Shown one piece after another: positions 6,514 to 38,015 of a DNA stretch of 64,000 nt. The notes beneath the pieces were generated by a model. That model ran no database searches. It was not told where the DNA came from and saw only the letters and a list, made by a program, of their open reading frames with translations. Source of the stretch: a bacterium (GTDB lineage Bacteria; Hydrothermota; Tepidihabitantia; SM23-42; JAOAFX01); contig DASVHD010000016.1 of assembly GCA_036382775.1 (NCBI GenBank), positions 8,323 through 72,322 on the forward strand. Reading direction: 5' to 3'. Position 1 is the stretch's first letter, and each line of letters starts with the position of its first letter. The position numbers and the translations under genes are program-made.

Positions 6514-6521
6514 AAAAGTGC

Positions 6522-17529: not shown

Positions 17530-17664
17530 TTTTCCTCCTTGTTTCCTTTTGACTTGTATGATCTCATACCATTATATTATGCAAAGACCGTGCCAGGGAA
17601 AAGTATCGTGAAACAATGACTTTGTACTTATATATGCAGCAAAATGTGGTGGTCTTGCACAAAA

Positions 17665-17681
17665 AAAGTGCCCAGCACTTT
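17665..17681. promoter_or_regulatory. palindrome AAAGTGC-CCA-GCACTTT (second copy at 37908-37924)
   Basis: 7-bp perfect inverted arms; identical 17-mer at both island borders; half-site also at ~37998-38008. Confidence 0.45.
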
Positions 17682-17952
17682 CTGAATGTATTTTGCCGTT
17701 ATAATAAATGTTGCATATTATTGAAGCTGGACCGCTGCTACTAGTCAGACACCCCTATATTCTTTATATGTTTTGATTTTACGAACATATAGCGGACAGG
17801 CCGGTTATGGTTGGTTTTGATGCACTATCTTACGTGATTTCAAGATGTTACTAAAAATGAACTGCGAGTGAGTGATTTTTTGTGTTATTTTGGTCGGTTT
17901 TAAGCCTAAAACACCATGAAATATCGTGAGATTCAGGCGCGCTGACAAGTCT

Positions 17953-18023
17953 ATTCCGGATTCCCCGTTTTTTTTATAATCATAGAAACATATAAGGAAA
18001 CGGGACTATAGTGTACCATGTTG
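17953..18023. repeat. ~70-bp direct repeat, left copy (attccccgtttt...gggactatagtgtaccatgttg); candidate island boundary
   Basis: Matches 37166-37226 (attccccgcttt...gcgggactatagtgtgccatgttg). Confidence 0.55.
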
Positions 18024-18229
18024 TCTGAAACACAACTAGCTATAACATCCTTGAGAATTGGAAAAATAAGGGAAATTAGTACTGGAAATAATTTTTTAAT
18101 CCAGGCGACAATATTGTCGAACAGATGACTTGAGTGCCGTAAGAAACTTATTGCAACAAGTATCCTCTGTCAACGCAATTCGTGACTACTCCAAATGATG
18201 TCCCTCATCGACCGAATTAAAAAACATAT

Positions 18230-18679
18230 CTAAGGCCATCTGTAATACTGTGCTTTTTTATGAGGGCACAATTCTTCAAATATTATATAATCATCTTTCT
18301 TGGTATAAAATACCCGCCAAGAAACCGATATGTAGAAATGCCATAGACCGGGACTTTCCTTGATCGGCGCATCACGCAAACCGCTGCAGGGTATCCGGTG
18401 TACTATTTTCATCATAGAATCTATCAATTTAAATCTCAAGGTTTTTGTTGTGCAGTATCTGTTTACTGATTTAATGAATCCTTCGCTAAACCCAAATTTA
18501 ACGGGCTCCCTTATAGTGTGATTGTACTGCTTCATTTCCGGACTGGTCTTATAATGCAATTCCATACACAGTTTCAAATCCGGCCATTTGTCGAGCACGT
18601 TGACAGTGGCCTCATCGGTATCGTCCCATCGAATTTTCTTATGACGCTGGTACAATAAGATCTTTACATTTCTTTTCAT
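18230..18679 (-). CDS. hypothetical protein in AT-rich segment; weak RelE/HigB-like C-terminus
   Basis: C-terminal ...WRVFYTKKDDYIIFEELCPH resembles RelE-superfamily ends; no partner ORF seen. Confidence 0.35.
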   Translation of the reverse strand: MKRNVKILLYQRHKKIRWDDTDEATVNVLDKWPDLKLCMELHYKTSPEMKQYNHTIREPVKFGFSEGFIKSVNRYCTTKTLRFKLIDSMMKIVHRIPCSGLRDAPIKESPGLWHFYISVSWRVFYTKKDDYIIFEELCPHKKAQYYRWP

Positions 18680-18751
18680 GATGCTTTTCGGTTATTAAAC
18701 ATTATTACTCGGTGTTAACGCGTAACGATAAAATCAACACGAAGGAGATAA

Positions 18752-19198
18752 TCAATCATACGCGCGGCGGGTTATTTCATCGGTCACGATCGGTTGAATC
18801 AAAGCCTCCCATTCCGGAGAATCCCAGGTTTTAAGTGCAGTATGCATAATGTAATATTTTTGAGGAATCGGGTGAGTTCCAACGACAACTTCAATTCCGT
18901 ATTTATTCTTGATGAAATCGCGCAATTGGGTGATGTACGGGCACGGCGGGTAACCAACAACCATGCCCGTCGCGAAATGGATGACGCTGGCTCCGTTTTT
19001 CTTCATTTCTTCAGGCGCGTATTCAATATTGCCTCCGGGGCAACCATTGCAGGTCGCGTACCCCACGATTTCTAAATTCTGCTTCTGGTACCGGCCGAAA
19101 GCACCCTCTCTGTTTCTGGCGGCACGAAAGCATTTTCCTCCGGCGCAGGTTCGATAACGGTCACAAATTATTATGCCGATCTTCACTTTTTCTTTCAT
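18752..19198 (-). CDS. CGGC-domain protein
   Basis: KIGIIICDRYRTCAGGKCF...GYATCNGCPGG...VIHFATGM...PCPY matches the CGGC family pattern; RBS AAGGAG before the ATG at 19198. Confidence 0.6.
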   Translation of the reverse strand: MKEKVKIGIIICDRYRTCAGGKCFRAARNREGAFGRYQKQNLEIVGYATCNGCPGGNIEYAPEEMKKNGASVIHFATGMVVGYPPCPYITQLRDFIKNKYGIEVVVGTHPIPQKYYIMHTALKTWDSPEWEALIQPIVTDEITRRAYD

Positions 19199-19234
19199 CG
19201 CAGCTCCTTGTTCATATATTGCAGATACCAATGG

Positions 19235-20542
19235 TCACGGTATGACCGTAATTCTCCCCGGATTTTTTTTGGTTACCCTGCCAATTACCGGCGATAAGTT
19301 CGGATACCTTTCCCAGAAAAACCCCAGTTTATCCTCAGGCAATACGACTGCCAATCCACCCGATGTTTCAGAACTGAAGATGAGCTTGCCAAGCAGAGAA
19401 TTTTTATCTTTTCTCCGCACGTTATTTGAAAAAGAACCAAGGTTCATGGAAATGCCTGGTTCCTCAACTCCTTTTTTCAAAACTTCCAGAACTCCTTTGT
19501 GCACAGGTATTTGAGAAAGCCGCAGTTCAATGCCCACCCTGCTCGCCTGCGCCATCTCTACCAAATGGCCCGCCAATCCATAGCCAGTAATATCGGTGGC
19601 AGCGTGAGTTCCTGCCTGCCTCATGGCAAGCGAGGCATCACGGTTCAAAGTAGTCATTGCTTCAACAACCTGCTGTAAATCAATCCCTTGGTCTTTTTTT
19701 TCGATAACCGATTGAATGATGGTCCCGGTACCGATTGGTTTGGTGAGTACAACCACATCCCCCGGTTGGGCTCCAGTATTGGTGATTATTCTATCCGGGT
19801 GAATATAGCCAAAAACCGCGAGCCCATATCTAATCTCGTTGGCAACAAAGGTATGCCCGCCAAGGATAGTGACTCCTGCTTCTTGTGCCCTTTCTTCGCC
19901 ACCAAGCAGAATTTGCCCTAATATTTCAGGATCGCCGTCCCCTGGAAAACCGATGATATTTAGACCGAGTTTTGGATCCCCGCCCATCGCGTAGATGTCA
20001 GAAATAGAATTCGCGGCCACAATCATACCATACACTTTTGGATCCGAGATAACGGGGGTGAGCATATCAACAGTAAAGACAACTGCGGAATTCTTACTTA
20101 TCCGATAGACACCTGCGTCATCAGCAGTATTAATGCCAACCAGAAGATTTTTATCCTTGCTCCGGGGGAGAATGGAAAGTGCTTGCGCCAACTGCGCAGC
20201 CGACATCTTTGACGCTCAACCCGGGCAGGTAATGGTCTCGAGAATATTGAATATCTCTCGTTTATAGTCTTTTTTGCAAAAGAGCCGACAGTGGCAATAA
20301 CCATCCTGCTCCACCTCATCATCCAGGGTCGGACAGGGGCATACGACATCGCATTCTCGATCTACCGGATGGTGTTGTTTGCAGGGGCAATAATATTTGC
20401 CATGCTCTTTCAGGTTATTGGTCATGAGCCCGATTATCTGTTCATCCCAATCCCGATTGGGATTTATTATAAATCCTTTCCTTTCGGCAATTTTTTTTAA
20501 CCGCTGATAGTTCATTTGACAATCATTATCATGTTCAAACAT
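19235..20542 (-). CDS. selD: selenophosphate synthetase SelD with in-frame UGA (selenocysteine) codon and an N-terminal FTR-catalytic-subunit-like domain (fusion)
   Basis: The track's ORFs 20216-20542 and 19235-20206 are in the same frame, separated by TGA(20216-20218)+GCG TCA AAG. ...ITCPG-U-ASKMSAAQL aligns to E. coli SelD GAGCGCKISPKVL with U at the catalytic Cys. The N-terminal 95 aa carry CPC-x13-CPC-x11-CHC. Strong RBS AAGGAG at the 20542 ATG. Confidence 0.7.
20181..20200 (-). ncRNA. SECIS-like stem-loop 16 nt 3' of the UGA in the selD mRNA
   Basis: mRNA GCUGCGC-AGUUG-GCGCA(A)GC: 7-bp stem with a bulged A and a 5-nt G/U-rich loop. Confidence 0.45.
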
Positions 20543-20648
20543 TTTTTCTCCTTAAATTTTCCGTGTCGGCAATAAGTTTGGGTGTTCCAAACTGACAACA
20601 AACACAATTAAAGATAATGATTTGGTTTTTCAATTCGATCTCAGCCTT

Positions 20649-21899
20649 TCATCTATCGAGCGACGTATCTTTATCTGAACCTTTGCCGCTGCTGAACTTT
20701 TTCAAATCTATGGCCATTCCAAGTATTTTCTGTTTTTCATTCTCGAAGAGTTGTTTATATTCTTTCTTAACTGAGGGTGCTCTGGGTATCTTTATGCTTA
20801 AAGGATTGACGGGCACATTGTTGATATGAAGCTCAAAATGGAGATGGGGACCGGTGCTTAGACCGGTATTCCCCGAATAGGCGATCAAATCACCCATTTT
20901 GACATATTTACCTACCTTTATGCCTGGGGCAATTTTTGAAAGATGACCATACCGCGTCAAATAATTATTCGGATGCTTAATCTCAACCAGGTTGCCGTAT
21001 CCCCCTTTCCAACCCGCATAGGTGATCTTTCCATCGCCGATCGAAGATACCGGAGTGCCGATCGGTGCAACATAATCAAGACCATGGTGAGGACGCCAGA
21101 TACGCAGGATCGGATGAAAACGGCGGTTAGAAAAATAGGAGCTTATCCGGCTGTAACGGAGCGGCGACTTAAGCAGCGATTTCCTTAAAGATTCGCCTTT
21201 CAAGCTGTAAAAATCATCATAACCTTCAGGATCGTCGAAATAGATGCCCGCGTAATCACCGACATAACCCTGATAGCGAACATAAAATATCTTCGGATAG
21301 CTTACCGAATTCGAATCGACAATTTCTTTCTCAACTAAGATTTCAAAGCTATCCCCATTCTGGGTCTCAGTGGAAAAATCTATCTCCCGGGCAAAAATGT
21401 CGGCAAAATTGTAAACCAGTTCTGGTGTTTCGCCCATCTTCAGCATCGTCTCGTAGAGCGAAGAATTGATCTTACCCCAAATAATAACCATGTGCCGTTC
21501 GATATAGGGGGAATGCATGTAGCAGATTAATCCCTGGGAATCTTTCTCGACAATATATTTTTCTTTCGGACTCATTGTATAGCAAAATTTTGAAAACTCA
21601 CCATTAATCCGCACGATATAGACCGAATCAGCGGGACGGCAGTACCGAAAGGGAAATTGGGATATTTTTAATTCATCGATAATTTGCAGGGCAAGTGAAC
21701 GATCAAGGCTCGTGCGGAAGAGAGCTGCCTGAAGGTGATCATTTCTCTTGATCTGTACAAACTCAGTCGTGACAACCGGCTGATGAATTTTTCCGGTGAC
21801 TTTATCTTCTTTTCTTCTGGAACAGCCTAAAATGAGAAGCGACAATAACAAAAGAAATTCAGCAAACCGAGTAAGAAGAAGGGGTCTCATCTTATGCAC
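20649..21899 (-). CDS. M23-family peptidase lipoprotein (copy 1)
   Basis: HHGLDY...GYGNLVEIKH...GHLS...GNTGLSTGPHLHFELH LytM/M23 motifs; lipobox LILGC. Confidence 0.75.
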   Translation of the reverse strand: MHKMRPLLLTRFAEFLLLLSLLILGCSRRKEDKVTGKIHQPVVTTEFVQIKRNDHLQAALFRTSLDRSLALQIIDELKISQFPFRYCRPADSVYIVRINGEFSKFCYTMSPKEKYIVEKDSQGLICYMHSPYIERHMVIIWGKINSSLYETMLKMGETPELVYNFADIFAREIDFSTETQNGDSFEILVEKEIVDSNSVSYPKIFYVRYQGYVGDYAGIYFDDPEGYDDFYSLKGESLRKSLLKSPLRYSRISSYFSNRRFHPILRIWRPHHGLDYVAPIGTPVSSIGDGKITYAGWKGGYGNLVEIKHPNNYLTRYGHLSKIAPGIKVGKYVKMGDLIAYSGNTGLSTGPHLHFELHINNVPVNPLSIKIPRAPSVKKEYKQLFENEKQKILGMAIDLKKFSSGKGSDKDTSLDR

Positions 21900-22135
21900 T
21901 TCCTATCATCAGCACAGGGTGGTTTTCCGCACCGCTCATTTTTGCCGCAGCAGGTCTTGTCTTTATTTAAGCCACCTGCCTTTGTGCTCAGCGGGACGTG
22001 GCTCTTTGAAAATATCCGGTTCAATTCCTTGCTGCCACAATATTGGCATTTAATCTCTGCATCGCCTTGTTCCATGCCGACTAGGAATTCGTTAATCGCA
22101 GCATAGAGTGCGCACCGGTATTCATAAATCGGCAT
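21887..22135 (-). CDS. FmdB-family zinc-ribbon protein (copy 1)
   Basis: MPIYEY-R-C... CQYCGSKEL; paralog of 26978-27226; its stop overlaps the next gene's start by 13 nt. Confidence 0.6.
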   Translation of the reverse strand: MPIYEYRCALYAAINEFLVGMEQGDAEIKCQYCGSKELNRIFSKSHVPLSTKAGGLNKDKTCCGKNERCGKPPCADDRKCIR

Positions 22136-22237
22136 CTGAATTCCCTTTATTTAACCCTTATATTGTATCTCACTAAACAATAATCTCCTCTTTTAGCACG
22201 ATCTACCATAACATCAAACAAATTTTCAATTACTGGT

Positions 22238-23407
22238 TCAGATCTTTTCAAGAGCCTGCTGTAAATCAAATATAATATCTTGGACATTTTCAATGCCAAC
22301 TGACAAGCGCACAAAACCCGGACTGATTCCGCATTTCTGTAAATCGTTTTCAGAATAGTTCGAATGGGTCATTGAGGCAGGATGCTCGATCAAAGTATCG
22401 ACATCTCCGAGACTCACCGCGAGGATGCACAATTTGACTGAATTCATGAGAACCTTCCCCGCTTCTTTCCCGCCCTTCATATCAAAACCAATCATGCCGC
22501 CGAAATCACTCATCTGTTTCCTGGCGGTCCCGTGTCCGGGATGATCTGGCAAACCAGGGTAATATACTTTTTCAACCCTGGGCTGGCTTGTGAGAAACTG
22601 AACAATTCTTTTTGCGTTTTCGCAATGACGGGTCATCCGCACGGCGAGTGTTTTCAATCCTCTTAAAATCAGCCAGGCATTGAAAGGCGATGCCGTTGCA
22701 CCCATTTCTTTAGCAGTCTCGGCCTGCATTCTCGCGATAAAATCCCCCTTGCCGACAACCATGCCGCCGACAATATCACCGTGCCCGCTCAAATACTTGG
22801 TTGCCGAATGGACCACGATGTCGGCCCCAAGTTCTATTGGTCGCTGGAGATATGGGGTCGCAAAAGTATTGTCCACACATACCGGGATATTACGGCTTCG
22901 GGCGATTTCAGAGCACCGTGCAATATCGATAATTTTGAGCGTAGGATTGACCGGCGTCTCAATAAATATCATTCGGGTGTTCGGTTTTATTGCTTTGTTT
23001 AATTCATCAATTTTCGTCGCATCAACAATAGTAACCTGAATGCCCAGGCGGGGCAGGATTGTGTTGAATAAAGCAAATGTGCCGCCGTAAATTGTATTGT
23101 CCGAGATGATGTAATCATTGCAGCCCGCGCAAGTTATGATCGTGGCTAAGATTGCGGCAAGACCAGAAGAGAATACCAAACCGGACTCGGCTGACTCCAA
23201 CCGCGCAATTTTGCCTGCCAGAATGTCAATCGTGGGGTTGCTGATCCTTGTATAGATATATCCTTCTTCTTCATTTTTAAACAAACGCGCCCCGTGATCG
23301 GCATCGCGGAAGGCAAAAGTTGATGTCTGATAGATGGGCGGCGAGATCGCACCGGTTGATTTATCCGGGTGCTGACCACCATGAACGATATCGGTCTCAA
23401 TACGCAT
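22238..23407 (-). CDS. Cys/Met-metabolism PLP-dependent enzyme, methionine gamma-lyase-like (copy 1)
   Basis: Start chosen at MRIETDIVHGG by alignment with paralog 33853-35022; ...SATKYLSGHGD... PLP-Lys region. Confidence 0.75.
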   Translation of the reverse strand: MRIETDIVHGGQHPDKSTGAISPPIYQTSTFAFRDADHGARLFKNEEEGYIYTRISNPTIDILAGKIARLESAESGLVFSSGLAAILATIITCAGCNDYIISDNTIYGGTFALFNTILPRLGIQVTIVDATKIDELNKAIKPNTRMIFIETPVNPTLKIIDIARCSEIARSRNIPVCVDNTFATPYLQRPIELGADIVVHSATKYLSGHGDIVGGMVVGKGDFIARMQAETAKEMGATASPFNAWLILRGLKTLAVRMTRHCENAKRIVQFLTSQPRVEKVYYPGLPDHPGHGTARKQMSDFGGMIGFDMKGGKEAGKVLMNSVKLCILAVSLGDVDTLIEHPASMTHSNYSENDLQKCGISPGFVRLSVGIENVQDIIFDLQQALEKI

Positions 23408-23556
23408 TATCGCCTCGGGTTCGGCAAAGATGGGAAGAAAAAGGCTTCCCCTGATCAGATGCAATGGCAAGCTTGTTTAGGACATATCCTTTGTCTTCCC
23501 CCATCTCTGATGGTTTTTTGTAATCCTGCCGGTAAACTTCGTCTTCTTTATATTCT

Positions 23557-23832
23557 TTATACATCCTTTTTCTCCAGTTCTTCCATGCGTTTTTGCAATT
23601 CTTGCTTCTCTTTGGTCAAAGCCTCGAGTTCCGCCTTCAAATCCTCGGCCGTGGGTTCCGGCGGAATTATTCCGTGGTGCAGACTGCGTCCATGGACAAG
23701 TCTGCCGTTTCGGTCTTGATAGAATGCATGCGGGCCAGTGCTACAGCGACATGGCCCGACATATGTATATCCCGATGGGATGATCGTTTCTGGCCACCGA
23801 CATCTGTTCCAGCTTCTTCCATATCCATACAT
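23557..23832 (-). CDS. DUF5320-like protein (Gly/Arg/Cys-rich N-terminus plus coiled coil)
   Basis: GPCRCSTGPHAFYQD followed by EDLKAELEALTKEKQELQKRMEELEK; from memory this family co-occurs with DUF134/NifX-like/Mrp genes. Confidence 0.45.
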   Translation of the reverse strand: MYGYGRSWNRCRWPETIIPSGYTYVGPCRCSTGPHAFYQDRNGRLVHGRSLHHGIIPPEPTAEDLKAELEALTKEKQELQKRMEELEKKDV

Positions 23833-23833
23833 T

Positions 23834-24034
23834 TCAGACTCCTTTCTTTTTTTCTTCTATTAACTGATGATGGTAAGAGCATTCTCGGACCATCTTTGAC
23901 CCGCACTGGGGACATTTTTCTTCTCGGCATGGCACCCCTGCTTCATGCGATTGCTTAAAGCCACGTTTCGGACAGACACAAAATCCATTAGGCACTGTTA
24001 CCACGGGACCCCCTAATATTGTTTTTTCTTTCAA
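23834..24034 (-). CDS. small CxCPxCG...CPxCG zinc-ribbon protein (TTG start); paralog of the C-terminal extension of 27710-28183
   Basis: FCVCPKRGF...[31 protein letters not shown] versus FCLCPKCGE...[31 protein letters not shown]. Confidence 0.5.
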   Translation of the reverse strand: MKEKTILGGPVVTVPNGFCVCPKRGFKQSHEAGVPCREEKCPQCGSKMVRECSYHHQLIEEKKKGV

Positions 24035-24334
24035 TAAACTTGCTCTCTGCTCTTGCGAGAAGTTCGCCGTTTGATGACAATTCTGCTTTCAACTTATATA
24101 AAGAATAGCCGGCAGATATAACCCAAGCTTTAATGAACAAAGATGAATCACAGGGCACCGGTTTTATGAATCGGACAACAAGTTCTGCGGTTCGGGCTTC
24201 AACATTACGGCTGAACAGGCAATATGTCATCGCGCAATCTAATAAAGAGCTGATGATTCCTCCATGCATTAGTCCTTTATACCCTTGCAGATTACGGTTC
24301 CCTTAAAAAATCGTGGTGACGTTTCCTGTTTCAT
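23988..24334 (-). pseudogene. hotdog-fold (PaaI-like) thioesterase, apparently frameshifted or N-terminally truncated
   Basis: ...GLMHGGIISSLLDCAM... core; an in-frame stop 12 codons upstream; a short ORF MKQETSPRFFKGTVICKGIKD sits in another frame overlapping the start. Confidence 0.3.
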
Positions 24335-24473
24335 CCAAATTGAATTTCAAGTGAAATGATAATTCATTGTTGGATCCACACATAATGCATTCTTTATGCG
24401 AATCGGGAATCGAAACCGGGCCGCGTTTTTCATTGCTCATAGGTGTCCCCCCATAGGCTTCCCGCTATACGAA

Positions 24474-25016
24474 TTACGGCACCAGAACCGCAGCCGCAAG
24501 AACGGTGGTCCAAAGACCGTACTTCTCGCCGATCGCGGTCTGGCTGATGTTCATGGTTTTCACGATTTTAGTGGAAATTTTCCAGATTTCCTTTCTTTCA
24601 TCATAACTGACATCCGGTTCAAACGGCACGCCCAGAGTCGTGGCAAGCATTTGCGCCGCCAGATCTTCGGCTTTATCTCCGGAATTTGTTTCGGTCTCGC
24701 CATAAGAGTGGTATTCGGAAAGATAACCGTACTGGGACCGCTCCGCGGGAACCGCGACTCCGATTGACGCGGCGATCAGCCGGTATGGTTCATTGGTGCT
24801 GCATTCGGCAATAACCGCGTAGACGATCTCGCCCGGCGAGAGATATTGAAGACCTTTGAACCGGGAAAGGATTTTTGCTCCCGGCGGCAGGATGCTCGAT
24901 ACGCGAACGATATTAAAAGGGGCGGTACCGGCGTCACGGAGAGCGGCCTCGAAACTGGCTAGCTTCTCCTTGTGCCGGCCGGCGCCTTTCGTCAGAAAAA
25001 TTCTTTTAGGTATAAT
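24474..25016 (-). CDS. pdaD: pyruvoyl-dependent arginine decarboxylase PdaD, with non-canonical start (ATT at 25014-25016, or ATA at 25011-25013)
   Basis: Not in the ORF track. Translation IIPKRIFLTKGAGRHKEKLASFEAALRDAGTAPFNIVRVSSILPPG... (Ser-Ser self-cleavage site); no ATG/GTG/TTG in frame near the N-terminus; GGAG 7 nt upstream of the ATT. Confidence 0.65.
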   Translation of the reverse strand: MIPKRIFLTKGAGRHKEKLASFEAALRDAGTAPFNIVRVSSILPPGAKILSRFKGLQYLSPGEIVYAVIAECSTNEPYRLIAASIGVAVPAERSQYGYLSEYHSYGETETNSGDKAEDLAAQMLATTLGVPFEPDVSYDERKEIWKISTKIVKTMNISQTAIGEKYGLWTTVLAAAVLVP

Positions 25017-25051
25017 GATTACGCTCCGTTTTCATATCTATCATACACTTC

Positions 25052-26137
25052 TCAAATAATCTTTTTAAGGGCATCGATCAACCGGCGGTTCTGACTCTCG
25101 GTGCCGACCGTAATCCGCAGGGCATTGGGAAAACCGTATTCTTTAATCGGGCGGGTAATGATACCCCTTTTTTGCAATTCTTCAAAGACAATTTGACTGT
25201 TTTTATCGAAATCGACGAAGATGAAGTTCCCATAAGTCGGCAGATAAAAAAGTCCCAGTCTTTTGTAAACATCGAAAAGAAATTCTTTGCCTGCCTCGTT
25301 TACTTCTTGTCCTTGTTTCACATGATCAAAATCCTCAAGCGCGGCGATTCCCGCGGCCTGGGAAATTCTGTTGACATTGAAAGAAATCCTCAATTTCATC
25401 AGATTTGAAATTATTTCTCTTTTCGCAAATCCATAACCCAGTCGAGCGCCAGCCAGCCCGTAGATCTTGGAAAAGGTCCGCAGGATCAGCATATCCTTCC
25501 CGGCGCGGAAATAATTGAATGAGCTTGGATAATCCGGGTCGGATATGTACTCATAATAGGCTTCATCCATGATCACCAGCACATCTGACGGCAGTTGCCT
25601 GAAAAAATCATTAACTTCGGCCTTGGTGACCATCGTGCCGGTAGGATTATTGGGATTGTCAATATAGATCAGTTTTGTATCCTTTTTTACGGCCATAAGC
25701 ATGCTTTTTAAATCATGGGTATAATGCTTCATCGGCACTTCAATTAATCGGGCACCGGCAATACTGACGGCAATCTTAAACCAGATGAATGCCCCCTCGC
25801 TCGTGATCGCGCTGTCGGCCGGATCAAGGTAGGCTAAAGCAGCGAGCAGCAGAATTTCAACCGAACCGTTGCCAATAATGGTCGCTTCCGGGTCAACCTG
25901 GAATCTCCGGGCCAAGACATTCCTTAATTTACAACAGTTGTCATCCGGGTAAAGAAAGCATTCATTTATCGCCTTTTGCATGGCTTTGATCGCCAGCGGA
26001 GATGTACCCAGCGGATTTTCATTGGAGGCGAGTTTAATCACATCTCCTTTCAGGTTCAGCTCCCGAATCACTTCCTCTATGGGCTTGCCCGGTTTGTAAG
26101 GTCTTATTCTCTTGACTAAATCTCTCGCTTCAATCAT
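25052..26137 (-). CDS. hisC: histidinol-phosphate aminotransferase-like class II aminotransferase
   Basis: LASNENPLGTSPLA motif; ~360 aa. Confidence 0.65.
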   Translation of the reverse strand: MIEARDLVKRIRPYKPGKPIEEVIRELNLKGDVIKLASNENPLGTSPLAIKAMQKAINECFLYPDDNCCKLRNVLARRFQVDPEATIIGNGSVEILLLAALAYLDPADSAITSEGAFIWFKIAVSIAGARLIEVPMKHYTHDLKSMLMAVKKDTKLIYIDNPNNPTGTMVTKAEVNDFFRQLPSDVLVIMDEAYYEYISDPDYPSSFNYFRAGKDMLILRTFSKIYGLAGARLGYGFAKREIISNLMKLRISFNVNRISQAAGIAALEDFDHVKQGQEVNEAGKEFLFDVYKRLGLFYLPTYGNFIFVDFDKNSQIVFEELQKRGIITRPIKEYGFPNALRITVGTESQNRRLIDALKKII

Positions 26138-26138
26138 A

Positions 26139-27705: not shown

Positions 27706-27709
27706 AAAT

Positions 27710-30545: not shown

Positions 30546-30563
30546 GTCATTAATTTATTATTG

Positions 30564-30815
30564 CTATTGGCTACGATCATTGTCTGCAGGTTTGACAATA
30601 ATCCGGCGGGCTATGCCAAAACCTATCGCAACCTGGGCTTTGCCAACGCCTACGATCACCGGTCCGTGCATAATCTGCGTACTCACTTTGGTTATTTCTA
30701 CTCCGGGACGGATCTCCAGTGCCTCCAGTTTCATGGCCATTCCCCTGCCGCCCTGGATTTCAATAACTTTTCCCTTTTGGCCCGGTTGCATTACTGTTAA
30801 ATCGATCTTGTTCAT
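30564..30815 (-). CDS. feoA: FeoA
   Basis: 83-aa SH3-like protein immediately upstream of feoB. Confidence 0.7.
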   Translation of the reverse strand: MNKIDLTVMQPGQKGKVIEIQGGRGMAMKLEALEIRPGVEITKVSTQIMHGPVIVGVGKAQVAIGFGIARRIIVKPADNDRSQ

Positions 30816-31277
30816 TTACCTCTCCTTTGAAGAGCACTTCTTACAAAGCCCGTACAATTCCAATTTATGCGATTCTACTTTAAACCCATGCTTCGCCGCA
30901 ACCTGTTTTTGCAATTTTTCTATCTCATCTTGAGAAAATTCTATTATTTGCCCGCACCTCAAACAGATCAGGTGGTCGTGATGCTCGGCTTTGTGTCTGG
31001 GTTCAAATCTTGTCTCTTTGCCTTTAAATTGGCAGATATGCGCCAAACCCATATTGGCAAGTAATTTCAACGCGCGATAAACAGTCGCATAGCTGATCTG
31101 GGGATTGATTTTTTTGATTTCGTTATAGAGTTCCTCGGCCGTAAAATGCCGGTCCTCCTTAAGAAAATAATTAACGATGGATGTTCTTTTTTTAGAAGCT
31201 TTCAGCTTTTGTTCTTTTTTATATTTCTGGTACTCGTCCAGTCCATTTTGCTTTTTGATTTTGATTTGCATTTTCAT
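30816..31277 (-). CDS. Fur-family metalloregulator (copy 1), probably translated from a leaderless mRNA
   Basis: HHDHLICLRCGQIIEF...CKKC; start reassigned to the ATG at 31277 (MKMQIKIKK) because the track's TTG start is the -35 box itself. Confidence 0.7.
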   Translation of the reverse strand: MKMQIKIKKQNGLDEYQKYKKEQKLKASKKRTSIVNYFLKEDRHFTAEELYNEIKKINPQISYATVYRALKLLANMGLAHICQFKGKETRFEPRHKAEHHDHLICLRCGQIIEFSQDEIEKLQKQVAAKHGFKVESHKLELYGLCKKCSSKER

Positions 31278-31283
31278 TATTAT

Positions 31284-31311
31284 ATTATACTTAAAGAGCC
31301 GCAAATGTCAA
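31284..31311 (-). promoter_or_regulatory. consensus promoter TTGACA-16-TATAAT, 6 nt before the fur ATG
   Basis: Read on the minus strand: ttgaca tttgcggctctttaag tataat ataata ATG. Confidence 0.55.
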
Positions 31312-31407
31312 GAACCATTGTTACCGGCTGTCAATCTCTCCGCAATCGGCGCGTTCCGATTTATGCTCATTATGCGAGACCGCGAAGTAATTTTTCTCCA
31401 TCCGGAT

Positions 31408-31435
31408 TGACTAATATGAATAAAACCCTATAATA
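31408..31435 (+). promoter_or_regulatory. promoter TTGACT-16-TATAAT for the DUF192 gene, with ~7-nt leader
   Basis: Hexamers read directly; the ATG at 31449 has no obvious RBS. Confidence 0.5.
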
Positions 31436-31448
31436 TTCCTGAGACACG

Positions 31449-32006
31449 ATGAGATCAATGAGGCAAGAAATAAGGCAAAAAACAATATTAGTCCCGAATA
31501 AGATAATTGATCATACGGTTGTATGCACATTGTGTTTCCTCGCATGGTGGGTGCTCAACGCAGCCTGCAAAAAATCCGAGCGGGCACCTGCTTCGGATAA
31601 GCGGTACGAAGTTCCATTCAAGAAAGAAGGCCGGCTCGCGTTTATCAAAAAGGACACAAACGATACATTGATCGTGATCGATATTGAAATCGCCGATAAC
31701 GAGGAAGAAAGAACCCGGGGACTCATGTGGCGCTATTCAATGCCAGACGGCGATGGCATGCTATTTGTTTTCGGAGAGGAAAGTCCGTTGTCGTTCTGGA
31801 TGAAGAACACGTATATACCTCTAGATATTGTGTTTGTCAATAAGAGATATGAAATCATCACAATTCGGCAGAACACAACTCCTTTGGATGAAATGCCGAT
31901 ACCGTCGGATAAACCAGCCCAGTACGTGGTCGAAGTAAATGCCTGGTTTTGCGCCCGCCGCCGGATTAAAACCGGCGATGGGATCGGGTATGTTAAAGTC
32001 AAATAA
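31449..32006 (+). CDS. DUF192 (UPF0127/COG1430) protein with N-terminal membrane anchor
   Basis: MPDGDGMLFVF...FWMKNTYIPLDIVFV matches the DUF192 pattern. Confidence 0.5.
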   Translation: MRSMRQEIRQKTILVPNKIIDHTVVCTLCFLAWWVLNAACKKSERAPASDKRYEVPFKKEGRLAFIKKDTNDTLIVIDIEIADNEEERTRGLMWRYSMPDGDGMLFVFGEESPLSFWMKNTYIPLDIVFVNKRYEIITIRQNTTPLDEMPIPSDKPAQYVVEVNAWFCARRRIKTGDGIGYVKVK

Positions 32007-32011
32007 AAACG

Positions 32012-32314
32012 TCAGTGCTTTTTTACCCGAAAAAACAGTTTGCAGTAACAATGGCCGTCCTTTTTTACCTCTTCATCGAGCGCGGGGCACGGGCAGAGGA
32101 CGTCATTAACCTCATCCAGTGGATCACTCTGCTTGCAGGGACAGAAGTATTTCCCATGCTCCTGATAATTCATGGTCATTAGTCCCACAACTTTTTTAAC
32201 CCGCTCATTATTCTGGTTCAGCCTGTATCCTTTGCTATTAGCAATACCTTCGATTCTTTTTAGATTTTCATCGTATTCTGTCATGCCGACAACGTCATCC
32301 CACTCATTAGCCAT
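32012..32314 (-). CDS. ferredoxin:thioredoxin reductase catalytic-subunit-like protein, standalone (copy 2)
   Basis: CPC-x13-CPC-x11-CYC motif; paralog of the N-terminal domain of the selD fusion. Confidence 0.6.
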   Translation of the reverse strand: MANEWDDVVGMTEYDENLKRIEGIANSKGYRLNQNNERVKKVVGLMTMNYQEHGKYFCPCKQSDPLDEVNDVLCPCPALDEEVKKDGHCYCKLFFRVKKH

Positions 32315-32564
32315 GTTGCCTCCCTTTTTTTAGTTTTAGAAAATCAGGAACTAAACAGGAATTTTTGGAATGTATTAAATGTAAATTGCGTAGATTGAAT
32401 AACTGGTGATGATTTTCTAAAGAGACCCGACCGGGTCGAAAAACCCGGAGAGTCATTTGTTATTTCCCCAAAAGGTAATGAGTTCTCTCATATTCAAGGC
32501 AATCATATGCGAATAATTTTTAATGTCAACATGGCAACTTGTTTTTTGCATGGTGCACCATGTG

Positions 32565-32930
32565 TCAATACATATTCCATTTCAATTTTGTTTCAAGGAT
32601 TTTGTTCTCTTTTATTTTTTCTTCACGCTGTTCAGAGTCGCATTCTAAAAGCAATGTTTTGAGCACTTCGGCATGCGCCTTTGCGTCTCTCGCCAGGTCA
32701 AGGAGAATCTTCCTAATGTGCTCGTTCGTGGTGAGCGTTGACAATTGTTCATAGAGATTTATCGCATCCGACTCCGCATTAGTACCAGCCCTGATGATTT
32801 CTTTGTCTAATTCCTCTTTGTGCAATTTATCCCATTTTGAAGGAATTTGGAATGGCATTTTTACCTCCTTCTCAAACATTTCGTCCTTAATATGTTCAAA
32901 AGACACCCAGAGCTTTTTTAACAAAATCAA
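32565..32930 (-). CDS. small ferritin-like/rubrerythrin-like protein
   Basis: AESDAINLYEQLS...EHIRKILLDLARDAKAHAEVLKTLL four-helix-bundle-like pattern; ATGA-coupled to the upstream M23 gene. Confidence 0.4.
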   Translation of the reverse strand: MILLKKLWVSFEHIKDEMFEKEVKMPFQIPSKWDKLHKEELDKEIIRAGTNAESDAINLYEQLSTLTTNEHIRKILLDLARDAKAHAEVLKTLLLECDSEQREEKIKENKILETKLKWNMY

Positions 32931-33844
32931 TCATAAATCATATCGGACAGATTGATGTAATTAGATGGATTTACTCTGATGCCTGAGACGTGTACTTCAT
33001 AATGCAAGTGCGAACAGGTTGCACGGCCTGTTGAGCCGACAGTGGCAATTATCTGTCCCCGCTTTATTATATCACCTAATTTCACCAAAATACTTTGACA
33101 ATGAGCATAGCGGGTTACATATCCATAACCATGGTCAATTTCAACCGACAATCCAAAACCCTGATTCCATCCCGTAAAGATAACTATGCCATCAGCTGTT
33201 GCATAAATTTGTGTTCCGGTCGGAGCACCGATATCAACGCCCCAATGCATGCGGATTTCTTTGGTGAACGGATCAACCCGGTAACCAAAGGGCGAGCCAA
33301 GAATACGCCCAGGTAAAGGATTTACTGAAGGCATATGTGCATAGCAATTCAGGTTGTCATCGATTTTGCGTTTTATTTCACCAAGACTCTTTCCTCTGAG
33401 ATTGCATTGACCACATAGGATATTAAGAGCATCGTGGATATCATCCAACATTTTTTGCGTCTGACTCGACAAATTTTTATCTGAGAAATCACTGGTGCTG
33501 CCGCCTATTCCCATAGACCACACATCGGGGTGTATATTGGCCATTTCCAGATAGGTGCGCTCGCGATAATCTCTGGCAATTTGTGTTTCCAGTTGCTGAT
33601 TTGCAGCTTGAACTAAGTGAGATAGTGAATCCGATTTCGCCAACAAGAATAAGTGTTCATCTTCAAGTCTGGCAAGGTTTGTCTTGGCAGCCGTAGTACA
33701 TGCGCGATAACAAAATAAGGCTATCGTAAAGGTAGTGAGAATCAAAAAGAGTGTAGCAATAAAATATGGTAGTATCCATGGCAGAGAAAGGCGGCGTGTC
33801 CAATTCCTCTTTCTGGATATCAACACTAAGTTGATTTTTTCCAT
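32927..33844 (-). CDS. M23-family peptidase (copy 2) with N-terminal membrane anchor
   Basis: HWGVDIGAP...GFGLSVEIDHGYGYVTRYAH...GSTGRATCSHLHYEVH. Confidence 0.75.
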   Translation of the reverse strand: MEKINLVLISRKRNWTRRLSLPWILPYFIATLFLILTTFTIALFCYRACTTAAKTNLARLEDEHLFLLAKSDSLSHLVQAANQQLETQIARDYRERTYLEMANIHPDVWSMGIGGSTSDFSDKNLSSQTQKMLDDIHDALNILCGQCNLRGKSLGEIKRKIDDNLNCYAHMPSVNPLPGRILGSPFGYRVDPFTKEIRMHWGVDIGAPTGTQIYATADGIVIFTGWNQGFGLSVEIDHGYGYVTRYAHCQSILVKLGDIIKRGQIIATVGSTGRATCSHLHYEVHVSGIRVNPSNYINLSDMIYD

Positions 33845-33852
33845 TATCCCTT

Positions 33853-35022
33853 TTATATTTTATCCAGCGCCTGTTTCAAATCATCAATCAAGTCGTTTAT
33901 GTTCTCAAGTCCAACTGACAACCTGACGAAACCTGGTTTGATACCGATTCTCATTAACTCTTCTTCAGTGTATGCCACGTGTGTCATTGAAGCCGGGTGT
34001 TCGATCAATGTATCAATATCACCGAGACTAACAGCAAGGATGCACAGTCTGACCGAATTCATTAATTTTTTACCTGCTTCAATGCCATTCTTAAGATCAA
34101 AACCGATCATACCTCCGAAGTTTGTCATCTGTTTCTTAGCCATTTCATAGCCGGGGTGCCCGGGCAGACCGGGATAATAAACTCTTTCAACTTTAGGGTG
34201 AGCCGCGAGGAAATCGGCAATTTCCATCGCATTTAAACAGTGCCTGTCCATTCTCACGGCAAGCGTCTTCAATCCACGTAAAACCAGCCAAGCGTTGAAA
34301 GGCGACATTGTTGCGCCGGTATGTTTTGCGAATTCTGACTGCATCCTTACAATGAAGTCGTTTTTACCGACAACTGCGCCGCCGATTATATCACCATGTC
34401 CGCCAAAATACTTCGTTGCCGAGTGAACAACTACGTCAGCACCGAATTGTATGGGCCTTTGCAGATATGGCGTTGCAAAGGTATTATCTACACACAAGTA
34501 TATTTGGTGTTTTTTTGCAATTTCTGCACATCGTTCAATGTCAATAATTTTCAATGTTGGATTTGCCGGGGTCTCAAAGAAAATCAGCCTGGTATTGGGT
34601 TTTATTGATCTTTCTATCTCCCCATTTTGCGCTGCATCAATAAAAGTTGTATGAATGCCCAACCGCGGCAGGACAATCTTGAATTGAGCGTATGTTCCAC
34701 CGTAAATTGTATTGTCACAAATGATATGCTCATTACTTTTAACACAGGTTATTATCGTCGCGAAAATAGCGGCGAGGCCCGAAGCAAATATAAGTCCGGC
34801 TTCGGCTGATTCCAGAAGGGCAATCTGCCGAGCAAGAAGGTCGGTGGTCGGATTTCGAAGCCGGGTGTAGATATATCCCGCTTCTTCATTTTGGAAAAGA
34901 TCAGCGCCGTGCTCGGCACTCTTGAAAGCAAAAGTTGATGTTTGATATATAGGCGGTGAAATGGCGCCCGTAATTTTGTCGGGATGCTGTTCCCCGTGAA
35001 CGATTATCGTTTCAACCCGCAT
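33853..35022 (-). CDS. methionine gamma-lyase-like PLP enzyme (copy 2)
   Basis: Colinear with 22238-23407 and similar along its whole length. Confidence 0.75.
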   Translation of the reverse strand: MRVETIIVHGEQHPDKITGAISPPIYQTSTFAFKSAEHGADLFQNEEAGYIYTRLRNPTTDLLARQIALLESAEAGLIFASGLAAIFATIITCVKSNEHIICDNTIYGGTYAQFKIVLPRLGIHTTFIDAAQNGEIERSIKPNTRLIFFETPANPTLKIIDIERCAEIAKKHQIYLCVDNTFATPYLQRPIQFGADVVVHSATKYFGGHGDIIGGAVVGKNDFIVRMQSEFAKHTGATMSPFNAWLVLRGLKTLAVRMDRHCLNAMEIADFLAAHPKVERVYYPGLPGHPGYEMAKKQMTNFGGMIGFDLKNGIEAGKKLMNSVRLCILAVSLGDIDTLIEHPASMTHVAYTEEELMRIGIKPGFVRLSVGLENINDLIDDLKQALDKI

Positions 35023-35181
35023 AGAACCTCCTCAACCATTGAAATGTGCTTGGATCCAGTGCCCTTAAAACGCTGGTTGCCCGTGCACGCGAAATTAATG
35101 ACCTTGCATGCAGTCGGTAGGAAAGAGAAATCGTTACGATGTTAATGAAAACCATTATCACTTATGAAAAAAAATATATCA

Positions 35182-36393
35182 TCATGATTTACCAACGGCG
35201 TTTTCTGCTATTTCACTTATCGCTTGTATTGTTCTTTGGATTTCCACGGCGGTGTTGAATGGTCCGATCGACAGCCGAACAGTACCGTCTGGCATCGTGC
35301 CGATGTTGTCATGAACAAGAGGGGCACAATGCAAACCCGTCCGCGAGTAAATGCCGTATCTGGTTTCAAGCATAGCACCTGTTTTATCCACGTCAAGTCC
35401 CTTTATTCGGAATGAGATTATGGCAGTGTGCTTTCCCATAACCGGTTCATTATAAAGAACGACATTGTCGATCTTCCGGAGTTCATTGCACAGCATTTTT
35501 GCGAGTTTCATTTCGTGTTTATATATGTTTTCTATTCCTTTTTCGAAAATATAATCATGCGCTGCAAAAAGACCCGCCACTCCAACCATATTTATCGTGC
35601 CGCACTCCAGATAATACGGAAACTTTTCTGGTTGATATCTTTCCTGGGAAAGTATTCCTGTACCGCCGAAACGAACCGCTTCTATTTTCACTCCATCCCG
35701 GATTTGCATGCCGCCGATGCCCATTGGACCCAACAACGATTTGTGTCCTGTAAACGCCACGACGTCAATATGCGATTTTTCCATATCGATGGGCACAACA
35801 CCAGCCGTCTGCGCGGCATCAAGCGCGAAAATCACGCCTGCTTTTGTGCATATTTCGCCGATATCCTTTATCGGTTGAATTGAGCCGATTACATTAGAGC
35901 AATGATTGACGATGACCAGTTTCGTATTCTTTTTGATTTTTTTCTTTATATCAGCAGGATCGATAAATCCTTTTTTATCGAATCCGATCCAATCTACATT
36001 GATATGCATCCTTAACGCCAGGTGATTCAATGGCCGAATAACCGCATTATGCTCCAGCGCAGTTGTTATGACGTGATCGCCATTTTTCAGAATACCATTG
36101 ATTATCATATTGAGCGAATCAGTTGCATTGTATGTAAAAATCAACCGATTGCGGTTCTCGGAATGAAAGAACCGCGTTAGTTTATCGCGTGTTCTCTCAA
36201 GTATCGTCTCCGCCTGTTGATAAGCATAACCTTTTGCCCGGCCGGGATTGACTCCATATTGTCGATAAAAGGCATTCATGAATTTGTAAACGCAATCCGG
36301 CTTGGGAAAAGTAGTTGATGCATTATCAAGATAGACGAAAGAAGTTCGCCTGAATTCTTTGGTGGCTCTTGTAATTTTTTTCATTTTACTCAC
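35182..36393 (-). CDS. class V aminotransferase, cysteine desulfurase/selenocysteine lyase-like (NifS/CsdA family)
   Basis: ~400 aa; ...VAFTGHKSLLGPMGIGG... PLP-Lys region. Confidence 0.7.
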   Translation of the reverse strand: MSKMKKITRATKEFRRTSFVYLDNASTTFPKPDCVYKFMNAFYRQYGVNPGRAKGYAYQQAETILERTRDKLTRFFHSENRNRLIFTYNATDSLNMIINGILKNGDHVITTALEHNAVIRPLNHLALRMHINVDWIGFDKKGFIDPADIKKKIKKNTKLVIVNHCSNVIGSIQPIKDIGEICTKAGVIFALDAAQTAGVVPIDMEKSHIDVVAFTGHKSLLGPMGIGGMQIRDGVKIEAVRFGGTGILSQERYQPEKFPYYLECGTINMVGVAGLFAAHDYIFEKGIENIYKHEMKLAKMLCNELRKIDNVVLYNEPVMGKHTAIISFRIKGLDVDKTGAMLETRYGIYSRTGLHCAPLVHDNIGTMPDGTVRLSIGPFNTAVEIQRTIQAISEIAENAVGKS

Positions 36394-36446
36394 GTTACCT
36401 CCTTTTTTCAGCGGGAAAGATAATTTTCATGATTAAGTTATCCTAA

Positions 36447-36466
36447 TAGTAATGATAATCATTTTC
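36447..36466. promoter_or_regulatory. Fur box: AATGATAATCATT, an exact 13-mer core of the Fur consensus GATAATGATAATCATTATC
   Basis: tagtaatgataatcattttc lies ~55 nt upstream of the NifS-like start and directly downstream of the Fur copy 2 gene. Confidence 0.6.
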
Positions 36467-36483
36467 ATTAATAAAAAAAATTT

Positions 36484-36987
36484 TTATTTCTGACAATCGG
36501 CACATAATCCGCAAAATTGAATTACATGATTTGTGATCTTGAAACCAAATTTCTGTGAAAGTCCTCTTTCAGTCCGTTTTACCAGCTCGAGTTCGTCCTC
36601 GATAAAATCCGTATAATCTATCACTCGGCCACAACGTTTACAGACAAGATGATGATGATGCTGTTGACCCTTTGGACCTTCCGACAACTCATAACGAGCA
36701 CGGTCATCGCCAAAGTCAAATTTAAAAACCAATCCCATTCGGACCAGCAATTCAAGGGTGCGATATATTGTGGTTAATCCGATATTCGGATAAACTTTAT
36801 GCACAATAAAATAAATGTCTTCCGCGCTTAAGTGCTCAGTTGTGCTGTGCAACACATCCAAGATCGCCTCACGGGGTACAGTCATTCTATAGCCATGACC
36901 ATTGAACTTATGGCGCCAATATGACCATAATTTATATTTCTTTTTTAGCATATTTTCTTTCTTGGCAACTGTTGATAATGCAACCAT
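36484..36987 (-). CDS. Fur-family metalloregulator (copy 2)
   Basis: HHHHLVCKRCGRVIDY...CADC. Confidence 0.7.
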   Translation of the reverse strand: MVALSTVAKKENMLKKKYKLWSYWRHKFNGHGYRMTVPREAILDVLHSTTEHLSAEDIYFIVHKVYPNIGLTTIYRTLELLVRMGLVFKFDFGDDRARYELSEGPKGQQHHHHLVCKRCGRVIDYTDFIEDELELVKRTERGLSQKFGFKITNHVIQFCGLCADCQK

Positions 36988-37001
36988 TTTTGACCTATTC
37001 C

Positions 37002-37029
37002 ATTATAAACATAAGATGCGGAGTGTCAA
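37002..37029 (-). promoter_or_regulatory. consensus promoter TTGACA-16-TATAAT for Fur copy 2, with ~8-nt leader
   Basis: Read on the minus strand: tcttgaca ctccgcatcttatgtt tataat ggaataggtcaaaa ATG. Confidence 0.5.
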
Positions 37030-37165
37030 GACCGTTCACATTTTATGTCATATAAAACCAAAAGCACATTTATTAATCAATTCAAAATCTAAAAACACAT
37101 ACCCGAGAAAGGTTCTCTGTTTCAATATCGTTAGTTTTAACGCTTTGGTCTTTGATATTTTGAGC

Positions 37166-37226
37166 CATATTCCCCGCTTTGGCCGCTAATACAAACAATG
37201 ATGCGGGACTATAGTGTGCCATGTTG
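37166..37226. repeat. ~70-bp direct repeat, right copy (candidate island boundary)
   Basis: Matches 17953-18023. Confidence 0.55.
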
Positions 37227-37259
37227 CGACTGAAATGTACAGCAGCCCTATAATAAATA

Positions 37260-37570
37260 TAATGTGAAATAAAAAGTTGAGATTGCTTCGTCCCGCTTAA
37301 GCGGAACTCGTAATGACAGGGAGACAGATGAGATTGCTTCCCCTCGTTCTTAGGGACACCAGTTATCCCCCCCACCCTTACCCTCCTCCTAACAGGACTC
37401 CAGTTATCCCTCACCCCTACCCTCTCCCTTTCCAAGGGAGAGGAATAAGGTGAGGGTTTAGTCTTTGATGCTGCCCTCGAGGGGGGAGGAAAAAGGAGGG
37501 GGTGAAAGGTTGCGCACAAAGAGCGTTCGCCATGACAACAAACAAACAGCCGATTCTGCTTTTTTTCAAA
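37260..37570. repeat. composite repeat cluster (units A, A', C, D, B); full-length counterpart of the elements flanking the TA cassette
   Basis: 37276-37325 matches 1264-1312 with 2 mismatches; 37327-37375 matches 78-125; 37433-37465 matches 1596-1630; 37473-37518 matches 133-178. Confidence 0.7.
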
Positions 37571-37745
37571 TCTGAACTTTTCAGTGGTTAGTATCCATGG
37601 CAAGGAACGAAAACTGACCTGCCATACATTTTATAGTTTCATGCCATAAAACTACCGATATTTCAGAACATATTTTGGACGTAAAACGTTTTTATAGAAT
37701 TCATTATAGTTTTGAAGTTGAAGAGAAAAACATTATTGAGCACCT

Positions 37746-37769
37746 GTCCACAAATTCGAATTTGTGGAC
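37746..37769. repeat. perfect 24-bp palindrome GTCCACAAATTC|GAATTTGTGGAC
   Basis: Read directly; lies in an intergenic AT-rich segment. Confidence 0.6.
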
Positions 37770-38015
37770 TAATGGCTCGGTTTTATTCCCCTCCCTCTTA
37801 TTCCCTCCCGCAGGGGGAGGGAAGTGAGTAGGAGGGGCGGGAGCCGGCAAAGAGTCACAAGCCCTTCGTAATGGTAATAGTCCGATGCAGGCGGATGATA
37901 TTGTTTGGAAAGTGCCCAGCACTTTTTGAAACCTGACCGATTGAGCAACAAATACGATTTATTGTAAAAGCAGTATGCGATGATTTGTTCTGCGGTGGTG
38001 TTAAAAAGTGCTGGG

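Follow-up and report, generated by a model that had tools for sequence, protein, structure and literature searches.

The window analyzed here, 64,000 nucleotides (nt) of contig DASVHD010000016.1 (assembly GCA_036382775.1) from a bacterium of the Hydrothermota, contains a lower-GC block that lies between a gene for a 208-amino-acid (aa) protein and a GNAT acetyltransferase gene. This block is a real, lineage-specific, integrase-less genomic island of an ordinary kind, with limits at positions 17694-38002 (20,309 bp) that were set by blastn and pairwise alignment to two relatives lacking it and by composition. An initial annotation of the window had proposed a candidate genomic island bracketed by repeats. 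The island itself stands, in the broad sense of the term, on its composition and on the empty sites in those relatives, but the direct repeat and the palindrome named with it neither bracket nor define it. We put at about 75% the probability that the block is a foreign, mosaic, non-mobile island gained after the split from the closest sampled relative, with the palindromes near its ends being native to the site and the direct repeat being a dispersed one.

The GC content of 17694-38002 was 0.445, compared to 0.530 in the left flank and 0.523 in the right. When calculated in 1-kb windows, GC ran at 0.50-0.58 between 2 and 17 kb, at 0.39-0.51 between 17 and 38 kb and at 0.47-0.60 beyond, and the edges were sharp, with 500-bp values falling from 0.51 to 0.37 near 17.5 kb and rising from 0.42 to 0.55 near 38.0 kb. 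The mean GC at third codon positions (GC3) was 0.475 in 23 block genes versus 0.644 in 26 flank genes (Mann-Whitney p=1e-8); GC1 also differed between block and flanks, and GC2 was the same. Tetranucleotide deviations correlated at 0.72-0.79 between block and flanks, compared to 0.89-0.90 among pieces of the flanks and 0.91 between the two halves of the block. By GC, GC3 and tetranucleotide usage the block thus has the deviant composition of a genomic island in the broad sense. The distinct composition that had been judged by eye is borne out by these GC, codon (GC3) and tetranucleotide statistics, and composition shifts at both edges rather than being uniform across the window. The contrast in the earlier GC figures holds, but their absolute values do not, as the flanks are at 52-53% rather than 58-62%, and the block is at 44-45%, with its genes at 38-50%.

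Empty sites were found in two relatives among 44 fetched loci (approximately 700 kb in all). A homology search with the 208-aa left-flank protein yielded one close relative at 93% aa identity, GCA_040961595.1 (L029), of which L030 is an independent Logan assembly; the other relative, L044, is represented by a 260-kb JGI contig (3300060291). The gene order in L029 and L030 is PMSR/SelR, acyltransferase, AMP-ligase, Rce1-like, PPDK-like, TPR, GNAT and, 333 bp farther on, the 208-aa gene, and blastn showed L029 to be collinear with the window at approximately 90% identity without 17694-38002. L044 aligned at 81-86% identity on both sides of the block, the 1675-aa CHAT gene included, and only 215 bp separate its GNAT gene from the gene for a 209-aa protein. 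The native flanking genes in the window, both on the minus strand, encode the Gly-rich 208-aa protein on the left (16903-17529), whose orthologs in the two empty-site genomes are 93% and at least 90% identical in aa sequence, and the GNAT acetyltransferase on the right (38016-38534; GC3 0.74). The 208-aa protein matched no Pfam or NCBIfam family. The block is missing at exactly this site in L029/L030 and in L044 and is present in all contigs of the same species. Since the GNAT and 208-aa genes are directly adjacent in both relatives, 17694-38002 is a lineage-specific insertion in the window, and its absence from L029/L030 and L044 between conserved flanks is the presence/absence pattern of a genomic island in the broad sense. 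The search for an empty site that the initial annotation had suggested was therefore answered by two relatives that keep the flanking genes adjacent without the block, and neither was found to carry the same block in the same place without the repeats. When GTDB species genomes were scanned with the PPDK-like flank protein, the only relatives recovered were at most 44% identical (Planctomycetota and others) and gave no useful synteny, and locus L031, which carries a 55%-identical homolog of the 208-aa gene, was not syntenic with the window.

The region as a whole is indel-rich. Window segments 61-1674, 2724-5756, 6516-10400, 11534-16843, 46833-47723 and 48755-51027 are missing or replaced in L029. 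They include a RelB/ParE cassette, in the place of which L029 has other cargo including a PIN gene, as well as CHAT/TPR genes, a C69 peptidase and an S9 prolyl oligopeptidase, and most of them are of native GC.

Nucleotide identity in the flanks was approximately 90% between the window and L029, 81-86% between the window and L044, and approximately 80% between L029 and L044. A single gain is the parsimonious explanation since L029 and L044, both without the block, bracket the window's branch. The block could instead be ancestral to the whole group and have been deleted independently at the same spot in the L029 and L044 lineages, which we consider unlikely. The indel-rich character of the region fits such losses, L029 lacking native-GC segments that the window and L044 keep (for example, the 1675-aa CHAT gene), as do the housekeeping-type genes hisC, pdaD and selD inside the block. 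However, two deletions with the same outcome would have to replace one gain, the 8-point drop in GC, the 0.17 drop in GC3 and the separate tetranucleotide signature would be left unexplained, and the empty sites hold no remnant alignable to the block ends.

A 17-bp palindrome, AAAGTGCCCAGCACTTT, occurs exactly at 17665-17681 and at 37909-37925. The two identical copies had been noted before, correctly except that the coordinate of the right copy was off by 1 nt. These are the only matches in the 64 kb even when two mismatches are allowed, against a chance expectation of 0.02-0.2, and the palindrome was found nowhere else in the 64 kb or in the approximately 700 kb of loci outside this site. 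A half-palindrome, AAAGTGCTGGG, overlaps the GNAT stop codon at 38005-38015. The empty site of L029 contains full palindromes at 9756-9772 and 9849-9865, 93 bp apart, with a half-site another 94 nt upstream, and L030 likewise holds both palindromes. The copy at 17665-17681 is the native proximal one, with approximately 103 nt between its center and the inferred start site downstream. The copy at 37909-37925 is the distal one, and L029 has a copy at a matching distance from the GNAT stop codon. Since both copies pre-exist in the L029 empty site, the palindromes are neither att sites nor a target duplication.

The position of the palindromes suggests another function. The minus strand carries an exact sigma-54 (-24/-12) promoter, TGGCACGGTCTTTGCA, at 17580-17595, and 51 nt separate it from the downstream ATG of the 208-aa gene. 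The exact pattern TGGCAC-N5-TTGC has this sole match in the window and is kept in L029 and L044; across the 44 loci it was found only upstream of homologs of the 208-aa gene, including a 55%-identical one in a genome of 40% GC. Dyad activator sites approximately 100-200 nt upstream are the classical layout of sigma-54 promoters of the NtrC/NifA type. By position and conservation, both palindromes are probably tandem enhancer (activator-binding) sites. They share with NtrC/NifA-type promoters the exact promoter element, suitably spaced from the start codon, its conservation among orthologs, and dyads at approximately 100 and 200 nt upstream, about nine helical turns apart; they differ in that the distal site in the window is displaced by 20 kb and in that no activator gene was found nearby. 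To our knowledge, AAAGTGC-N3-GCACTTT fits no activator site known by name.

At the left junction, L029 homology (92%) spans the 208-aa gene and the proximal palindrome and ends at 17693, 12 nt past the palindrome. At the right junction, continuous L029 homology reaches as far as the GNAT stop codon (38003); the distal palindrome with approximately 20 nt on its block side also aligns to L029, with a score reached by 1 of 1000 shuffles. The large insert proper may thus span approximately 17694-37887, with 17694-38002 as its conservative limits on this alignment. The DNA on the other side of the distal-palindrome spacer is intergenic and 92% identical, versus no detectable similarity in the spacer itself. 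When the empty-site spacers were aligned to the block ends, the palindrome with its approximately 20 nt was the only significant match, and no target-site duplication was found at the breakpoints (17693/17694 and approximately 37887-38003). The junctions are covered, with identical sequence, by contigs that each span one of them and that come from three assembly sources (ENA, JGI and Logan) and at least five samples: four cross the left junction, two cross the right junction into the block, and two more end in a repeat cluster of the right border.

The direct repeat, described earlier as approximately 70 bp long, proved to be a 36-nt core of 83% identity (17988-18023 and 37191-37226) that includes a run, CGGGACTATAGTGTRCCATGTTG, matching at 22 of 23 positions. 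The octamer ATTCCCCG sits 27-33 nt upstream of the core, with intervening sequence that is unlike in length and content. The left copy (17905-18023, plus strand) is a truncated copy of a longer element, containing its first approximately 120 nt in reverse orientation and 87-88% identical to copies on loci L040 and L046. The right copy (37166-37226, plus strand) is an approximately 60-nt fragment with only the terminal (first) hairpin, located 165-200 nt upstream of the Fur-operon promoter. A third partial copy, of the central part, is at 1380-1525 (plus strand), inside the segment 61-1674 that other cargo replaces in L029. The two copies in the block lie inside the insertion, approximately 210-330 bp from the left breakpoint and 650-800 bp from the right, and neither empty site (L029 or L044) has a copy. 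All three window copies belong to segments that L029 lacks or has replaced, and none is at a breakpoint.

Further copies, 75-89% identical, were found on L040/L045/L047 (one) and on L046 (two). The L040 copy, to which the left window copy is 88% identical, is intergenic, beside MacB/FtsX genes, on the contig of another organism that was obtained through a 75%-identical NifS homolog. Searching JGI metagenomes with a 21-base core returned three contigs, representing the L040 locus again and L046; an earlier metagenome scan for the repeat core had found no match, in a collection without the source contigs and with a pattern that excluded the L040 variant. An 81-aa open reading frame (ORF) and a gene for an AAA_14/DUF4143 ATPase lie between the two L046 copies (within 684-3937), the first of which has a MazF-type toxin gene just upstream; one of the two copies holds a nested insertion of another short repeat. 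When all copies were aligned, an approximately 250-nt non-coding element emerged that contains two similar TCCCGT...ACGGGA hairpins in direct orientation; this alignment, which has few full-length copies, showed no clear terminal inverted repeats or target duplications. A gathering-threshold Rfam scan of the window was empty, and E-value scans of the borders and L046 gave chance-level miRNA and snoRNA matches only. Single-sequence folds of the repeat were no better than those of shuffled sequences except for one L040 strand (z=-2.6), and a three-sequence consensus fold showed little covariation.

With several copies in unrelated contexts (three partial ones in the window and others on L040/L045/L047 and L046), the alignments indicate that what was taken for a direct repeat is a pair of truncated copies of a dispersed non-coding element and not the ends of the island. 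The initial annotation had itself named a dispersed repeat family as an outcome that would speak against bracketing repeats, and this is largely what was found, with copies elsewhere in the window and in other organisms. The element resembles miniature inverted-repeat transposable elements (MITEs) and repetitive extragenic palindromic (REP) sequences in being approximately 250 nt long, non-coding, multi-copy, often truncated, located in AT-rich intergenic DNA beside toxin-antitoxin and accessory genes, and conserved at 87-90% between genomes versus 72% for adjacent genes. It differs from them in its two direct hairpins and in having no Rfam match, and its few full-length copies gave no clear terminal inverted repeats. 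The family seems to populate the flexible AT-rich intergenic DNA of this bacterial group.

Other small pieces of shared DNA were seen on L040, where a 100-nt 3' fragment of pdaD (425-524) is 90% identical in nt sequence to window 24464-24563 and is separated by 210 nt from a complete copy of the element (735-987; 88% to window 17905-18023). Identity to the window is only 72% in the Fur-NifS genes 9 kb away. Small pieces are thus better conserved between these genomes than genes are. At 37268-37541 there is a cluster of further short repeats, also dispersed, whose C/G-tract hairpins share 88-92% identity with window 75-237, 1251-1386 and 1587-1635, and two independent assemblies break within this cluster. 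A 24-bp perfect palindrome, GTCCACAAATTCGAATTTGTGGAC, is present at 37746-37769 as had been claimed, within the right margin of the insert. The borders are indeed AT-rich, repeat-rich and gene-poor, with no credible ORF or Pfam match in either.

The block has no recognizable means of moving itself. Pfam searches of all block ORFs and of the stop-to-stop frames of both borders found no recombinase, transposase or integrase domain, which bears out the earlier statement that none is present, and there is no tRNA or tmRNA gene in the 64-kb window. In plasmid and phage searches only a 100-nt conserved stretch of a methionine-gamma-lyase (MGL) gene was matched. There are no att-like repeats exactly at the junctions with a single copy in the empty site, and, with no transposase domain and no duplication at the breakpoints, the block does not have the structure of a composite element bounded by insertion sequences. 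A giant element of the IS200/IS605 type was also considered and rejected, since there is no Y1 transposase and a distance of hundreds of bases separates the hairpins from the breakpoints. Classical genomic islands are horizontally acquired chromosomal blocks specific to a strain or species, and the block resembles them in its size (20 kb), its sharp borders, its accessory metabolic cargo, its deviation in GC content and in the usage of codons and oligonucleotides, and in being missing from close relatives at this site. Unlike them, it lacks an integrase, a tRNA target, att repeats and conjugation or phage genes, and its cargo is a patchwork of small modules that are found separately in relatives rather than a unit observed to move together.

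The palindromes, approximately 94 nt apart, and/or the 250-nt element might be recombination sites of an unrecognized, trans-acting cassette-exchange system that accepts cargo of any size. All of the variable DNA lies between copies of the motif (half-site, distal and proximal, with approximately 94-nt spacing in L029), the first spacer has been swapped in the window for an unrelated sequence of the same length, and the 250-nt element has copies on both sides of accessory genes on L046 and is confined to segments that L029 lacks. If this were true, the island would be the cargo of a new, integrase-less insertion hotspot upstream of a sigma-54 gene. We regard such a system as quite improbable: the arrangement is known from a single locus, L044 has only one degenerate palindrome, none occurs elsewhere in the 64 kb or the approximately 700 kb, no candidate recombinase was found, and the location of the palindromes with respect to a conserved sigma-54 promoter offers a simpler explanation.

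Integration of a site-specific element whose ends are the direct repeat (att-like) and/or the palindrome, and which has since decayed or is mobilized in trans, is in our view highly improbable. Two 36-nt cores (83%) in the same orientation do lie near the ends, with identical palindromes outside them, but both palindromes are already in the empty site, the repeat copies are 0.2-0.8 kb inside the breakpoints, and the repeat is absent from the empty sites and dispersed elsewhere; nor is there an integrase or its remnant, or a tRNA. An assembly or binning chimera that joined DNA of a lower-GC organism at repeats, as the repeat-rich borders and the break of two short-read assemblies in the right border might suggest, can be dismissed because several independent same-species contigs of different samples (ENA, JGI and Logan assemblies) show the same sequence across each junction.

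We therefore favor a foreign island with native palindromes and a dispersed repeat. According to this proposal, 20.3 kb of DNA of foreign composition would have entered the lineage of the species after its divergence from the closest sampled relative and landed in the short spacer between the GNAT gene and the sigma-54-dependent 208-aa gene. Entry would have been by recombination not encoded on the island, either homologous exchange through the flanks once DNA of a carrier strain had been taken up, or one illegitimate insertion event, these being the most economical routes because the island is without movers and there is no target duplication. The insert would now part two native palindromes by 20 kb.

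Homologs of the cargo give some indication of its source. The nearest homologs of the block SelD are 78-83% identical in aa sequence and belong to genomes of 40-44% GC, in which FTR-B::SelD sits with Fur, NifX, Zn-ribbon, Mrp and NifU genes between flanks that differ from genome to genome; four of the best SelD homologs all come from assemblies other than the sister genome. Outside the species, the nearest NifS homolog (88% aa) is on L042, of 41% GC, where the order Fur-NifS-MGL is kept at 77-81% nt identity, and in the next (75% aa) only the Fur-NifS pair is retained. The named homologs of block and flank proteins belong mostly to candidate division WOR-3 and its neighbors. Compared with the WOR-3-like SelD neighborhood, the block has the same Fur, NifX-like, Zn-ribbon, Mrp and FTR-B::SelD read-through genes (75-83% aa); it differs in gene order and in having MGL, M23, CGGC, FeoAB, HisC and PdaD genes where that neighborhood has lactamase_B, methyltransferase and NifU genes, in a context that differs in every genome. 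These sequence comparisons suggest that the source was probably a lower-GC member of the same broad group, and we infer a horizontal origin.

Several observations weigh against this interpretation. The named homologs of block and flank proteins carry no cross-phylum signal, and the tetranucleotide signature of the block points to none of the sampled genomes in particular, its correlation with the host flanks (r=0.80) exceeding that with the low-GC relatives (0.60-0.75), so that the source may be another relative or the DNA may be partly ameliorated. Only two genomes with an empty site were found (L029/L030 and L044). The right junction is not clean, in that window 37926-38004 (79 nt) cannot be aligned to L029 9679-9755 (77 nt), and yet the distal palindrome keeps its offset from the GNAT stop codon in both despite these dissimilar spacers. 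As to a role of the palindromes as enhancers, in L044 there is no more than a degenerate copy of the proximal one, and there is no Sigma54_activat gene in the window; such genes do occur on related contigs.

The cargo genes listed in the initial annotation, including hisC and pdaD (TIGR00286, 121.8 bits), were confirmed by Pfam and NCBIfam. They are on the minus strand unless stated otherwise. A module at the right end (R1; 32012-36987) comprises genes for Fur (36484-36987), a class V cysteine-desulfurase family protein (TIGR01977; 35182-36393), an MGL-type pyridoxal phosphate enzyme (33853-35022), an M23 peptidase (32927-33844), a rubrerythrin-like protein (32565-32930) and a stand-alone FTR-B-like protein (32012-32314). 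Just upstream of this first Fur gene, at 37002-37029 on the same strand, is a perfect sigma-70-type promoter by consensus match only (TTGACA-16-TATAAT, 12/12). The adjoining segment, 28310-32006, contains DUF192 (31449-32006, plus strand), a second Fur (30816-31304), FeoA (30564-30815), FeoB (28830-30545) and DUF6125 (28310-28837, plus strand), and is followed in 24474-28183 by DUF134 (27710-28183), NifX-like (27316-27735), Zn-ribbon (26978-27226), an Mrp/NUBPL-type ATPase (26139-26990), HisC (25052-26137) and an open frame for PdaD (24474-25031). The PdaD frame scores above the TIGR00286 cut-off without a canonical start codon, there being no ATG, GTG or TTG before approximately residue 127, and is either a gene with an unusual start codon or a recent pseudogene.

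A decayed junction at 23397-24440 contains a split 4HBT thioesterase (23988-24440), a C-terminal fragment of DUF134 (23834-24034; 69% to the full copy) and an N-terminal fragment of NifX (23397-23564; 71% identity). The module at the left end (L; 18230-23470) comprises a second MGL-type enzyme (22238-23470), a second Zn-ribbon (21887-22135), a second M23 peptidase (20649-21899), FTR-B-like::SelD read through an in-frame TGA (19235-20542), a CGGC protein (18752-19231) and a 149-aa protein with no assigned family (18230-18679). A homolog of the last (L039 12120-12548; 69% nt) lies beside the SelD/Mrp cluster of a 40% GC genome, and the 149-aa protein may be a conserved partner of the SelD cluster rather than island-specific baggage. 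Each MGL-type gene is followed by an M23 peptidase gene. Paralog pairs in the block are 72, 63, 50, 31 and 27% identical in aa sequence; since the paralogs are old and gene fragments lie at 23397-24440, the block is a patchwork and not a recently duplicated or compact unit.

The TGA at 20216-20218 joins the FTR-B-like domain in frame to a SelD predicted to contain selenocysteine (…FNILETITCPG-U-ASK…, a CxxU motif). Five other genomes (L032, L033, L036, L039 and L043) have the same in-frame arrangement with a 9-nt gap, and a conserved hairpin, CUGCGC-AGUUG-GCGCAG, is located 19-37 nt after the UGA. The SelD fusions listed in PMC4561486 and PMC2398784 are with Ndh, NifS and a methyltransferase. 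No FTR-SelD fusion is found where ferredoxin is mentioned in PMC4561486 and PMC2398784, and FTR appears in PMC2398784 solely as a separate selenoprotein family.

Going by the annotations, the cargo would combine Fur-controlled iron uptake through FeoAB and Fe-S carrier proteins (Mrp, NifX-like and DUF134) with a sulfur and selenium mobilization route, which would lead from (seleno)methionine or (seleno)cysteine through the MGL-type lyases and the class V desulfurase to SelD and selenophosphate; the FTR-B-like and CGGC proteins would act as thiol or selenol redox partners. The case illustrates that compositional islands in uncultured lineages can be confirmed through empty sites in metagenomes, and that apparent boundary repeats can turn out to be native regulatory sites together with scattered repeat debris. 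It also suggests that genes for iron uptake, Fe-S handling and selenium activation, the latter including the only selD of this region, belong to a flexible gene pool, and that selenium use may vary between sister species.

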